The translations under genes and the position numbers were made by a program. This document shows, one piece after another, positions 21,278 through 25,947 of a DNA stretch of 64,000 nt. Below the pieces are notes generated by a model, which was given only the letters and a program-made list of their open reading frames with translations, searched no databases and was not told the DNA's origin. How positions within the stretch are numbered: the first letter of the stretch is position 1; each line of letters opens with the position of its first letter. Source of the DNA: Escherichia coli (lineage in GTDB: Bacteria; Pseudomonadota; Gammaproteobacteria; Enterobacterales; Enterobacteriaceae); NCBI RefSeq assembly GCF_048403405.1, contig NZ_CP183129.1, one strand, 5' to 3'.

Positions 21278-21445
21278 TATCATCAGGGAGCTAATCGGCT
21301 CCCTTTTTTTACCTTTAATTCCGAAATCTTTCGCTGCATTTGCGAATTCTGCTTGTCTGATTGCAGATGCCAGGTAACATAGGTATCCCCCCATTTACGG
21401 GTGGACAAGTGTTTATTTTTTCCGACTATTAACAGAGAGAATATT

Positions 21446-22846
21446 ATGAGCGTTGTGCCTGTAGCCGACGTACTCCAGGGCCGCGTAGCCGTTGACAGCG
21501 AAGTCACCGTGCGCGGATGGGTACGTACCCGCCGAGATTCAAAAGCTGGCATCTCCTTCCTCGCCGTTTATGACGGTTCCTGCTTTGATCCTGTACAGGC
21601 TGTCATCAATAATTCTCTGCCCAATTACAATGAAGACGTCCTGCGTCTGACCACCGGTTGCTCGGTCATTGTGACGGGTAAAGTCGTGGCATCGCCGGGC
21701 CAGGGGCAACAATTTGAAATTCAGGCCAGCAAGGTTGAAGTTGCTGGTTGGGTTGAAGATCCAGACACTTACCCGATGGCGGCAAAACGCCACAGCATTG
21801 AGTATCTGCGTGAAGTCGCTCACCTGCGTCCGCGCACAAACCTGATTGGTGCCGTCGCGCGCGTTCGCCATACGCTGGCGCAGGCGCTGCATCGCTTCTT
21901 TAACGAGCAGGGATTCTTCTGGGTTTCAACGCCACTGATTACTGCGTCTGATACCGAAGGGGCTGGCGAAATGTTCCGCGTTTCTACGCTGGATCTGGAA
22001 AACCTGCCGCGTAACGATCAGGGCAAAGTGGATTTCGACAAAGACTTCTTTGGTAAAGAGTCTTTCCTGACCGTATCTGGCCAGTTGAACGGCGAAACCT
22101 ACGCTTGCGCATTGTCCAAAATTTATACCTTCGGCCCGACTTTCCGTGCTGAAAACTCCAACACCAGCCGTCACCTGGCGGAATTCTGGATGCTGGAGCC
22201 GGAAGTGGCGTTTGCTAACCTGAACGATATCGCGGGTCTGGCTGAAGCCATGCTGAAATATGTCTTCAAAGCGGTTCTCGAAGAACGCGCTGACGACATG
22301 AAATTCTTCGCTGAACGCGTAGATAAAGATGCCGTTTCACGTCTGGAACGCTTCATTGAAGCCGATTTTGCGCAGGTGGATTACACCGACGCAGTGACCA
22401 TTCTCGAAAACTGCGGCAGGAAGTTTGAAAACCCGGTTTACTGGGGCGTTGATCTCTCTTCTGAGCATGAGCGTTATCTGGCGGAAGAACACTTTAAAGC
22501 ACCGGTAGTGGTTAAAAACTATCCGAAAGATATTAAAGCGTTCTATATGCGCCTTAACGAAGACGGTAAAACCGTTGCGGCTATGGACGTTCTGGCTCCG
22601 GGCATCGGTGAGATCATTGGTGGCTCCCAGCGTGAAGAGCGTCTGGACGTGCTGGACGAGCGTATGCTGGAAATGGGCCTGAACAAAGAAGATTACTGGT
22701 GGTATCGCGATCTGCGTCGCTACGGTACTGTTCCGCATTCCGGTTTCGGTCTTGGTTTTGAACGCCTGATTGCTTACGTAACTGGCGTGCAAAACGTGCG
22801 TGATGTGATTCCGTTCCCACGTACTCCGCGTAACGCCAGCTTCTAA
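21446..22846 (+). CDS. asnS: Asparagine--tRNA ligase
   Basis: 466 aa from [13 protein letters not shown]; class II aaRS motifs; internal Met of track ORF 21401..22846. Confidence 0.95.
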
Positions 22847-22857
22847 TTTAGCGTCTT

Positions 22858-22888
22858 CAAGAGCCAGCGCCCGCTGGCTCTTTTTTTA
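22858..22888 (+). terminator. asnS rho-independent terminator
   Basis: GAGCCAGCG-cc-CGCTGGCTC hairpin followed by TTTTTTT. Confidence 0.65.
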
Positions 22889-23237
22889 TCCTTTCTGTCA
22901 AGTTATCTGTTTGTTAAGTCAAGCAATCTATTTGCAACCCCACCATAACGATCATCCTGTTACGGAATATTACACTGCAACATTTGCGCACAAAAAATAA
23001 TCCGCATTCTTATTGCGGATTAGTTTTTTCTTAGCTGATAGCACAATTTTCATACTATTTTTTGGCGTTCTGGATGTCTGAACGAGGATTTAGTGCCAGG
23101 TCGATAAAGTTTCCATCAGAAACAAAATTTCCGTTTAGTTAATTTAAATATAAGGAAATCATATAAATAGATAAATATTGCTGTAAATATCATCACGCTT
23201 CTATGGAAATATGACGGTGTTCACAAAGTTCCTTAAA

Positions 23238-23302
23238 TTTTACTTTTTGTTACATATTTTTTCTTTTTGAAACCAAATCTTTATCTTTGTAGCACTTTCA
23301 CG
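23238..23302 (+). promoter_or_regulatory. ompF upstream OmpR-binding region
   Basis: TTTACTTTTTGTTACATATTTTTTCTTTTTGAAACCAAATCTTTATCTTTGTAGCACTTTCACGG, recognised from memory as the ompF F-box region; within a ~600 bp AT-rich leader. Confidence 0.6.
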
Positions 23303-23448
23303 GTAGCGAAACGTTAGTTTGAATGGAAAGATGCCTGCAGACACATAAAGACACCAAACTCTCATCAATAGTTCCGTAAATTTTTATTGACAGAACTTAT
23401 TGACGGCAGTGGCAGGTGTCATAAAAAAAACCATGAGGGTAATAAATA

Positions 23449-24522
23449 ATGATGAAGCGCAATATTCTGGCAGTGATCGTCCCTGCTCTGTTAGTAGCAG
23501 GTACTGCAAACGCTGCAGAAATCTATAACAAAGATGGCAACAAAGTAGATCTGTACGGTAAAGCTGTCGGTCTGCATTATTTTTCTAAAGACAATGGTGT
23601 AAACAGTTACGGCGGAAACGGCGACAAAACTTATGCCCGTCTTGGTTTTAAAGGGGAAACACAAATCAATTCCGATCTGACCGGCTACGGTCAGTGGGAA
23701 TATAACTTCCAGGGTAACAACTCTGAAGGCGCTGATGCCCAGAAAGGTAACAAAACTCGTCTGGCATTCGCAGGTCTGAAATTCGCTGATGCGGGTTCTA
23801 TCGACTACGGTCGTAACTACGGTGTGGTTTACGACGCACTGGGTTACACCGATATGCTGCCTGAGTTTGGCGGTGACACGGCATACAGCGATGACTTCTT
23901 CGTTGGTCGTGTAGGCGGCGTTGCTACCTATCGTAACTCCAACTTCTTCGGTCTGGTTGACGGCCTGAACTTTGCCGTTCAGTACCTGGGCAAAAACGAA
24001 CGTGCTGGTATTCCTGAGCGTTCCAACGGCGACGGCGTCGGTGGCTCTATCAGCTACGAATTCGAAGGCTTTGGTATCGTAGGTGCTTACGGTGCAGCAG
24101 ACCGTACCGACGCCCAGGAAGCCGAATTCCGCGGTCAGGGTAAAAAAGCTGAACAGTGGGCAACTGGTCTGAAGTATGACGCGAACAACATCTACCTGGC
24201 AGCGAACTACGGTGAAACCCGTAACGCTACGCCAATTGAAGGCGGCTTCGCCAACAAAACGCAAGACGTTCTGTTAGTTGCGCAATACCAGTTCGATTTC
24301 GGTCTGCGTCCGTCCATCGCTTACACCAAATCTAAAGCGAAAGACGTAGAAGGTATCGGTGATGTTGATCTGGTGAACTACTTTGAAGTGGGCGCAACCT
24401 ACTACTTCAACAAAAACATGTCCACCTATGTTGACTACATCATCAACCAGATCGATTCTGACAACAAACTGGGCGTAGGTTCTGACGACACCGTTGCTGT
24501 GGGTATCGTTTACCAGTTCTAA
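23449..24522 (+). CDS. ompF: Outer membrane porin OmpF (variant allele)
   Basis: 357 aa, [22 protein letters not shown] signal, C-terminal ...VGIVYQF; differs from my recollection of the K-12 protein in several predicted loop segments. Confidence 0.93.
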
Positions 24523-24546
24523 TAGCACACCTCTTTGTTAAATGCC

Positions 24547-24578
24547 GAAAAAACAGGACTTTGGTCCTGTTTTTTTTA
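24547..24578 (+). terminator. ompF rho-independent terminator
   Basis: AAACAGGAC-tttg-GTCCTGTTT hairpin followed by a T8 run. Confidence 0.7.
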
Positions 24579-24706
24579 TGCCTTCCAGAGCAATCTCACG
24601 TCTTGCAAAAACAGCCTGCGTTTTCATCAGTAATAGTTGGAATTTTGTAAATCTCCCGTTACCCTGATAGCGGACTTCCCTTCTGTAACCATAATGGAAC
24701 CTCGTC

Positions 24707-25897
24707 ATGTTTGAGAACATTACCGCCGCTCCTGCCGACCCGATTCTGGGCCTGGCCGATCTGTTTCGTGCCGATGAACGTCCCGGCAAAATTAACCTCG
24801 GGATTGGTGTCTATAAAGATGAGACGGGCAAAACCCCGGTACTGACCAGCGTGAAAAAGGCTGAACAGTATCTGCTCGAAAATGAAACCACCAAAAATTA
24901 CCTCGGCATTGACGGCATCCCTGAATTTGGTCGCTGCACTCAGGAACTGCTGTTTGGTAAAGGTAGCGCCCTGATCAATGACAAACGTGCTCGCACGGCA
25001 CAGACTCCGGGTGGCACTGGCGCACTACGCGTGGCTGCCGATTTCCTGGCAAAAAATACCAGCGTTAAGCGTGTGTGGGTGAGCAACCCAAGCTGGCCGA
25101 ACCATAAGAGCGTCTTTAACTCTGCAGGTCTGGAAGTTCGTGAATACGCTTATTATGATGCGGAAAATCACACCCTTGACTTCGATGCACTGATTAACAG
25201 CCTGAACGAAGCTCAGGCTGGCGACGTAGTGCTGTTCCATGGCTGCTGCCATAACCCAACCGGTATCGACCCTACGCTGGAACAGTGGCAGACACTGGCA
25301 CAACTTTCCGTTGAGAAAGGCTGGTTACCGCTGTTTGACTTCGCTTACCAGGGTTTTGCCCGTGGTCTGGAAGAAGATGCTGAAGGACTGCGCGCTTTCG
25401 CGGCTATGCATAAAGAGCTGATTGTTGCCAGTTCCTACTCTAAAAACTTTGGCCTGTACAACGAGCGTGTTGGCGCTTGTACTCTGGTTGCTGCTGACAG
25501 TGAAACCGTTGATCGCGCATTCAGCCAAATGAAAGCGGCGATTCGCGCTAACTACTCTAACCCACCAGCACACGGCGCTTCTGTTGTTGCCACCATCCTG
25601 AGCAACGATGCGTTACGTGCGATTTGGGAACAGGAGCTGACTGATATGCGCCAGCGTATTCAGCGTATGCGTCAGTTGTTCGTCAATACGCTGCAGGAAA
25701 AAGGCGCAAACCGCGACTTCAGCTTTATCATCAAACAGAACGGCATGTTCTCCTTCAGTGGTCTGACAAAAGAACAAGTGCTGCGTCTGCGCGAAGAGTT
25801 TGGCGTGTATGCTGTTGCTTCTGGTCGTGTGAACGTAGCCGGGATGACACCAGATAACATGGCTCCGCTGTGCGAAGCGATTGTGGCAGTGCTGTAA
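24707..25897 (+). CDS. aspC: Aspartate aminotransferase
   Basis: 396 aa from [39 protein letters not shown]-lysine region SYSKNFGLY. Confidence 0.95.
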
Positions 25898-25910
25898 GCG
25901 TTAAACACAA

Positions 25911-25940
25911 TGAAGCCCGCTTAAAAAGCGGGCTTTTTTA
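25911..25940. terminator. Terminator between convergent aspC and gloC
   Basis: AAGCCCGC-ttaaaaa-GCGGGCTT hairpin followed by TTTTTT. Confidence 0.65.
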
Positions 25941-25947
25941 TGCGCCT

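Follow-up and report, generated by a model that had tools for sequence, protein, structure and literature searches.

The ompF gene of the window, a stretch of 64,000 nucleotides of Escherichia coli DNA (contig NZ_CP183129.1, assembly GCF_048403405.1), is very likely a functional gene of a non-K-12 type that belongs to the standing allele class found in strains CE10, IAI39 and 042, and that combines a mosaic structure and an altered outer surface with a conserved pore. In this interpretation, the promoter-proximal region, the signal peptide and the initial strands match K-12, as does the final quarter of the gene, and a 674-bp block covering loops L1 to L6 would have a much older and separate ancestry. 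The allele itself is ordinary, catalogued and common in nature, and both its class and its evolutionary mode have already been described. The present analysis adds the sharp boundaries of the mosaic, a silent divergence of the block that reaches the level seen between species although no donor was sampled, a probable reversal of polarity for the length difference in L6, the population frequencies of both whole and partial modules, and the R167E substitution.

Gene identity and genomic context

An intact open reading frame of 357 codons plus a stop codon is present in the ORF listing; the encoded protein of 357 residues starts with MMKRNILAV and ends with VGIVYQF. The NCBIfam equivalog model for porin OmpF (NF007446) scores this protein at 751.9 bits, above the cutoff of 583, whereas the models of two paralogs remain below their own cutoffs (PhoE, 486 bits with a cutoff of 599; OmpC, 465 bits with a cutoff of 484). 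The score of the Pfam Porin_1 model is 456.9 bits. The signals for both export and assembly are present, as the first 22 residues match the K-12 signal peptide exactly and the C-terminal residue is Phe (...VYQF). The genes asnS, ompF and aspC follow one another on the plus strand (Table 1), and the same order is found in IAI39 and in K-12, where it is read from the opposite strand; thus, the gene occupies the orthologous position.

An error of sequencing or assembly, a pseudogene, or a paralog (ompC, phoE or ompN) mistaken for ompF would account for the difference in length from K-12 OmpF and for nothing else. It is contradicted by the intact reading frame with its signal peptide and C-terminal Phe, by the conserved position between asnS and aspC, by the model scores and by the occurrence of the same DNA in many independent complete genomes, and we regard its probability as negligible.

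Table 1. Coordinates of ompF, its segments and adjacent elements in the window, with the comparison to K-12
Feature	Coordinates	Strand	Observation
asnS	21446..22846	+	
Region taken to be promoter-proximal region and 5' UTR	23249..23448	+	100% identical to K-12; the nearest upstream difference is one base at 23248
ompF coding sequence	23449..24522	+	General porin; protein identical to RefSeq WP_000977905.1; DNA 100% identical to the annotated ompF of IAI39, CE10 and others
Signal peptide, 22 codons	23449..23514	+	Protein and DNA identical to K-12; mature PDB chains (1opf, 340 residues) begin at query residue 23
Divergent block, 674 bp, β2 through L6	23568..24241	+	Holds 106 of the 107 alignment columns that differ from K-12
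L1, codons 47-59	23587..23625	+	2 substitutions (G48D, E51V); adjoining residue M60K
L2, latching loop, codons 89-101	23713..23751	+	1 substitution (T99K); E71 and R100 (mature numbering) kept
Periplasmic-side cluster, end of β5, turn and start of β6	23782..23802	+	Y112F, V115A, F118I; conservative, off the surface
L3, constriction loop, codons 125-153	23821..23907	+	Protein identical to K-12; 7 codons differ silently; dS 0.47, dN 0
L4, codons 181-195	23989..24033	+	K-12 counterpart NER-DTARRS; 4 substitutions and 1 insertion; includes R167 (mature) to E
L5, codons 219-232	24103..24144	+	K-12 counterpart RTNLQEAQPLGNGK; 6 substitutions
L6, codons 259-269	24223..24255	+	K-12 counterpart NATPITNKFTNTSGFAN; 6 residues shorter (6 indel columns), 2 substitutions
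3' end of the gene, β13-β16, L7, L8, C-terminal Phe	24242..24522	+	Protein identical to K-12; one silent difference at 24483
Hairpin AAAACAGGAC-TTTG-GTCCTGTTTT with a T run after it; likely the intrinsic terminator for ompF	24550..24577	+	Read by eye from the letters
aspC	24707..25897	+	

The assignment of the promoter and the untranslated region follows our understanding of the K-12 ompF locus and is an assumption on our part. A consensus scan for promoters and terminators did not recover the weak ompF promoter and did not flag the hairpin downstream of the gene, and an Rfam scan of positions 22800-24750 returned no family at threshold. The single base at 23248 is T in the window, G in K-12, 042, A29 and TUM9812, and A in IAI39. 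The surrounding stretch, TTTACTTTT[G/T/A]GTTACATATT, is presumably the OmpR F1 binding box, and this three-state polymorphism might affect OmpR-dependent activation.

Protein differences from K-12 OmpF and their location

As a reference we used the ompF gene of K-12 (NC_000913.3), which encodes 362 residues, and PDB entries 3hw9 and 1opf served as independent checks. The two proteins are identical in 336 of the 363 alignment columns; the other 27 columns comprise 20 substitutions, one additional residue in the window protein (A186, in the L4 region) and a six-residue gap opposite K-12 TNKFTN in the L6 region. Overall identity is 91.9% at the nucleotide level (8.1% difference) and ∼92.6% at the amino-acid level. 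The sequence-only reading had described a divergent allele with 357 rather than 362 residues; both lengths are correct, the four segments that it quoted are all found verbatim in the window protein, and the presence of the same DNA in many independent complete genomes shows that the divergence is not noise.

For the location of these differences, 46 enterobacterial homologs were aligned, and the loops were delimited by the DSSP strands of an AlphaFold (AF2) model, which stands in for a crystal structure of this allele. The model has a mean pLDDT of 85.7, a pTM of 0.81 and alternating strands. In a Foldseek comparison with the PDB, the best matches are all E. coli OmpF (TM-score of 0.88 by query and 0.92-0.93 by target; rmsd ∼2.1 Å), and the protein is thus predicted to adopt a 16-stranded β-barrel fold like that of the solved OmpF structures. 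Loops L1, L2, L4, L5 and L6 contain 22 of the 27 changed columns, whereas the remainder of the mature protein has 5 changes in 223 columns (Fisher exact test, p = 3e-7). The proposed concentration of changes in surface loops therefore holds when the differences are mapped through the model that superposes on the OmpF crystal structures.

The accompanying statement that the barrel core and the termini are identical to K-12 was slightly overstated: the signal peptide and the C-terminus are indeed unchanged, but five substitutions lie outside the loops. These are M60K at the edge of L1 and β3, Y112F, V115A and F118I in the periplasmic-side cluster, and Y205F in β9, at its periplasmic end. The cluster at 112-118 corresponds to the non-extracellular hypervariable region 'HVR2' of a previous study (10.1101/2021.09.21.461324).

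The pore-forming elements are conserved. No substitutions and no indel columns were found in L3, L7 and L8. The eyelet and basic-ladder residues K16, R42, R82, R132, D113, E117, G119, G120, D121 and S125 are the same as in K-12, where the acidic D113 and E117 of L3 face the basic ladder of K16, R42, R82 and R132 (PMC3617542), and the L2 latch pair E71/R100 is the same as well. The mature protein carries a net charge of -14 in the window and -12 in K-12. Among the changed positions, R167 in L4 is the single one with a documented role in permeability; it is replaced by Glu in the window, an assignment made in an indel-containing part of the alignment and anchored solely by the ungapped right flank RSNGDG.

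Mosaic structure of the gene

Identity to K-12 in 100-bp bins of a 10-kb alignment is 98-100% on both sides of the gene and falls to 79-94% only from approximately 23500 to 24300. Within the gene, the 100-bp identity is 79-94% inside the divergent block versus 99-100% outside it. The borders of the block are sharp: perfect identity to K-12 extends over the 319 bp before it, namely 200 bp upstream of the coding sequence and the initial 119 bp of ompF, and over the 241 bp after it.

The silent differences have the same distribution, as 49 of the 50 codons that differ from K-12 purely silently are inside the block. Silent divergence from K-12 (dS, Nei-Gojobori method) is 0.51 in the block, 0 in the first 39 codons and 0.016 in the last 92 codons, and in the neighboring genes asnS, aspC, pncB, gloC and mepK it is 0.05-0.08, so that the divergence of the block from K-12 exceeds that of its flanking genes by a factor of 7-10. 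Inside the block, dS is 0.36 in the strands and turns and 0.47 in the invariant L3; the dN/dS ratio (ω) in the variable loops is 0.16.

The strong enrichment of amino-acid changes in the loops would also be expected from recent point mutations fixed by positive selection on a K-12-like gene, without recombination, and ompF appears on the lists of positively selected genes from earlier genome scans, as cited in a passage of 10.1101/2021.09.21.461324. Such a history is difficult to reconcile with the many silent differences spread through the block, strands and invariant L3 included, with the low ω in the loops, with sharp borders beyond which identity is perfect, and with the far lower divergence of the flanking genes. 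The high silent divergence in the strands and in L3, together with the ω of 0.16, rules out in our analysis that positive selection acted recently on a gene like that of K-12, and we consider the point-mutation history very improbable.

The gene therefore contains a bounded segment that is discordant with its flanks, and recombinant combinations of segments are found in the population (see below). By the evidence of its sequence, ompF is a recombinational mosaic in which the ancestry of the block is distinct from, and much older than, that of the rest.

Distribution of the allele and its modules

The population set comprised 5,426 complete E. coli genomes. Identity to the window ompF has a clean two-class distribution, being at least 99% in 484 records, 95-99% in 2, and 89.8-91.7% in the rest. 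DNA identity of 100% over the 1074 bp of the gene was found in IAI39, CE10, MS 69-1 and many other independent complete genomes. The search for the closest allele yielded an exact protein match, WP_000977905.1, in annotated E. coli genomes that include IAI39, 042 and a Swiss deer isolate (deer strain 48); the 042 gene encodes this same protein with 2 silent differences from the window. IAI39, CE10 and 042 are extraintestinal and enteroaggregative pathogens.

The flanking DNA is more variable than the allele. IAI39 has 0 differences from the window in the 1074 bp of ompF and 1.25% over 11 kb of flanks, and the flanks of 042 differ from those of the window by ∼0.6%. The downstream 24.4 kb of the window are 100% identical in TUM14771, 4621, MS 69-1, TUM1226, OX030728 and GN02461, and 99.1% identical in 042; identity of at least 99% over this region was observed in only 251 genomes, fewer than the number that have the allele. 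Judging from these matches, the allele is not confined to one genomic background. The sequence-only reading had also concluded that the host is not K-12, and this is borne out by the silent divergence of the flanking genes from K-12 and by the six non-K-12 genomes that share the downstream region.

The segments of the block have different distributions. In 479 genomes the L1/L2 segment is at least 99% identical to that of the window, and 285 more have it at 95-99%; the L4-L6 segment is present at 95% or above in 488 genomes. Strain A29 from a capybara (locus L086, 701-1789) has the L1 sub-block of the window at 100% identity (D48, V51, K60) on a K-12-like remainder, and strain M7424, a close relative of the window with 99.0% identity in the flanks, has an L4-L6 segment of the K-12 type. 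The A29-type alleles and the 285 genomes are, by the identity of their segments, direct evidence of module shuffling inside ompF.

Two records differ in the integrity of the gene. The annotation of FXCREC004 (locus L088, 701-1781) lists ompF as a pseudogene with a frameshift. In EBJ003, which has the allele class of the window, the match extends over 1073 bp of the record rather than 1074; this gene may also be frameshifted, and such cases could represent porin loss in clinical isolates.

Origin of the divergent block

The donor search covered one genome per species and gave 80 listed loci, among which E. fergusonii, E. marmotae and E. ruysiae are not represented. The nearest of the listed loci are those of E. 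albertii, of the divergent 'E. coli' SCPM-O-B-8794 (L074) and of Citrobacter spp.; more distant genera are also included. In the block, dS from the window is 0.66 for L074, 0.84 for E. albertii and 1.04 for Citrobacter, and the lowest value, 0.51, is that for K-12. No donor was found among the 80 listed loci, none of which is closer to the block than K-12, and none of the 90-bp windows of the block is clearly nearest to a listed outgroup.

Strain SCPM-O-B-8794 (NZ_JAATUR010000002.1) represents a species of its own in the genome collection, and the dS of its whole ompF gene from K-12 is 0.27. The label E. coli is thus probably wrong for this strain, and a cryptic Escherichia clade is its likely placement.

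Several states of the block are shared with the outgroups. F90, A93, I96, F182 or D198/A199 (mature numbering) are common to several of them, and the F..A..I states of the 112-118 cluster also occur in L074. The short L6 is present in all of these outgroups (E. albertii, L074 and Citrobacter). Because the nearest outgroups have the short L6, the six-residue difference is probably an insertion of TNKFTN in the majority K-12-type alleles and not a deletion in the window allele. The segment that the sequence-only reading had called shorter is therefore six residues shorter than its K-12 counterpart, but the change itself probably took place in the K-12-type alleles.

An import of the block from another named species (E. 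albertii, a cryptic Escherichia clade or Citrobacter) would be in line with these shared states, short L6 included, and with the fact that the block is as diverged from K-12 as K-12 is from E. albertii (dS of 0.51 and 0.53, respectively). This origin is opposed by the larger distance of the block from every sampled outgroup than from K-12 and by the results for the 90-bp windows within the sampled set, and it appears rather unlikely.

An old polymorphism of E. coli itself, kept by balancing (negative frequency-dependent) selection exerted by phages or immunity, with recombination homogenizing the ends of the gene, comes close to an even chance in our judgment but falls short of it. The bimodal identity distribution with almost nothing between the classes, the deep silent divergence with no closer outgroup among those sampled, and the reshuffled modules of the A29-type recombinants all agree with it. 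The low diversity within the class across phylogenetically separate hosts (IAI39, 042 and the window) points in the same direction, but it fits a recent horizontal spread too, and the frequency of the allele, 9%, comes from a biased sample of sequenced genomes. Because no donor was found, import and a long-maintained polymorphism are not separable here, and the source of the block would be either an unsampled donor or an old within-species polymorphism.

Comparison with known systems

The window gene shares with K-12 OmpF (P02931; PDB 2OMF, 1OPF and 3HW9) the locus and gene order, the 16-strand fold, the L3 eyelet, the basic ladder, L7, L8, the termini and the 5' DNA. It differs by the 20 substitutions, one residue more in L4 and six fewer in L6, Glu in place of R167, and nucleotide differences concentrated in the 674-bp block. 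With the CE10/IAI39-type allele class it shares the protein WP_000977905.1 and the set of hypervariable regions (HVRs), and it differs in the flanking DNA and the base at 23248 only, with no difference in the protein.

Mosaic evolution of E. coli ompF has been described previously, with HVRs located at loop apices and one HVR that is not extracellular, and with a CE10-type group (10.1101/2021.09.21.461324); a follow-up to this study lists ompF among 21 mosaic families of outer-membrane proteins (OMPs). The same work reported ∼5 major groups of ompF versus 15 of ompC, whereas the genome set analyzed here is dominated by essentially two classes of ompF. A conserved barrel with loop modules swapped by intragenic recombination is common to ompF and other mosaic genes, namely ompC, ompA, fhuA and lamB of E. 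coli, ompF of Yersinia and porB of Neisseria. In mosaic surface genes in general, the variable loops are targets of phages and of immunity. Two of the window substitutions, E51V and M60K (precursor numbering), were also reported in clinical and adherent-invasive (AIEC) isolates, in a study that correlated them with adhesion indices only and did not address the mosaic structure (PMC6691688).

Predicted functional consequences

The phenotypic consequences considered below are all ones that we infer from the observed sequence differences, their location, the mosaic structure, the frequency of the allele and the fold. With its fold, its L3 eyelet, its basic ladder and the latch residues of L2 all kept, the protein is expected to function as an ordinary trimeric general-diffusion porin, and its bulk permeability should be near that of K-12.

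The outer surface would be different, with L1, L2, L4, L5 and L6 changed and L6 six residues shorter, and given this altered surface, recognition by OmpF-binding phages, bacteriocins, effectors of contact-dependent inhibition (CDI) and antibodies may plausibly differ from that of K-12 OmpF. E-group colicins may be unaffected, since the part of OmpF through which they thread is the conserved lumen.

Published data on ligands concern several of the changed loops. OmpF and OmpC loops vary among isolates under the pressure of phages and immunity (PMC5056734), and T2-like phages recognize porin loops through their Gp38 adhesins. The binding loops of phage K20, L5 and L6, are the sites of HVR4 and HVR5 (10.1101/2021.09.21.461324), and a requirement of this phage for L5-L7 is cited in a passage of PMC12032242. 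In laboratory experiments, the single changes S53R, E93K and G347D (in L1, L2 and L8) switched susceptibility to OmpF-using variants of phage 21 (10.1101/2023.04.13.536812). On the other hand, CdiA-EC536 does not discriminate among the OmpF proteins of K-12, E. coli 536, Salmonella and Enterobacter (PMC5056734), and thus large loop differences have not always changed recognition.

A secondary and smaller effect may arise in the electrostatics of the vestibule. The change of R167 to Glu and the shift of -2 in net charge may modestly alter ion selectivity and the pre-orientation of antibiotics. At this position, R167S was found to raise permeability, as reported in the part of PMC4690030 that cites Ziervogel and Roux, and R167 is one of the two residues that set apart the 'pre-orientation' fields of OmpF and OmpC (PMC7730927). 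R167E is a readily testable candidate for a natural difference in how antibiotics permeate.

It can further be speculated that the block is a long-lived, possibly trans-specific balanced polymorphism of the OmpF surface, held at ∼10% in E. coli by frequency-dependent selection from phages, and that R167E measurably alters the entry of β-lactams or fluoroquinolones in the clinically important carrier lineages of phylogroups D/F; we consider this extended proposal improbable. For the standing CE10/IAI39/042-type class as described above, the practical implication is that an assumption of a K-12 surface in predicting phage-therapy host range, in targeting by colicins or nanobodies and in the design of porin vaccines would misjudge about one in eleven sequenced E. 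coli.

Other observations in the flanking regions

The distal part of the asnS-ompF intergenic region (22891-23199) has 15 differences from K-12 in ∼310 bp (∼5%), well above the level of the flanking genes. A terminator-like palindrome, which reads alike on both strands, is located at 22998-23022, and the asnS terminator is at 22859-22882. The GTG start at 21401 called for the asnS reading frame lies 45 nt upstream of the ATG at 21446, the annotated start in K-12, and was rejected as an artefact of ORF calling. Downstream of ompF, the aspC-gloC intergenic region (∼25898-25947) is 50 bp long in the window and in 042, 49 bp in IAI39 and 221 bp in K-12; the ∼173 additional bases of K-12 are probably an insertion of the REP/BIME type.
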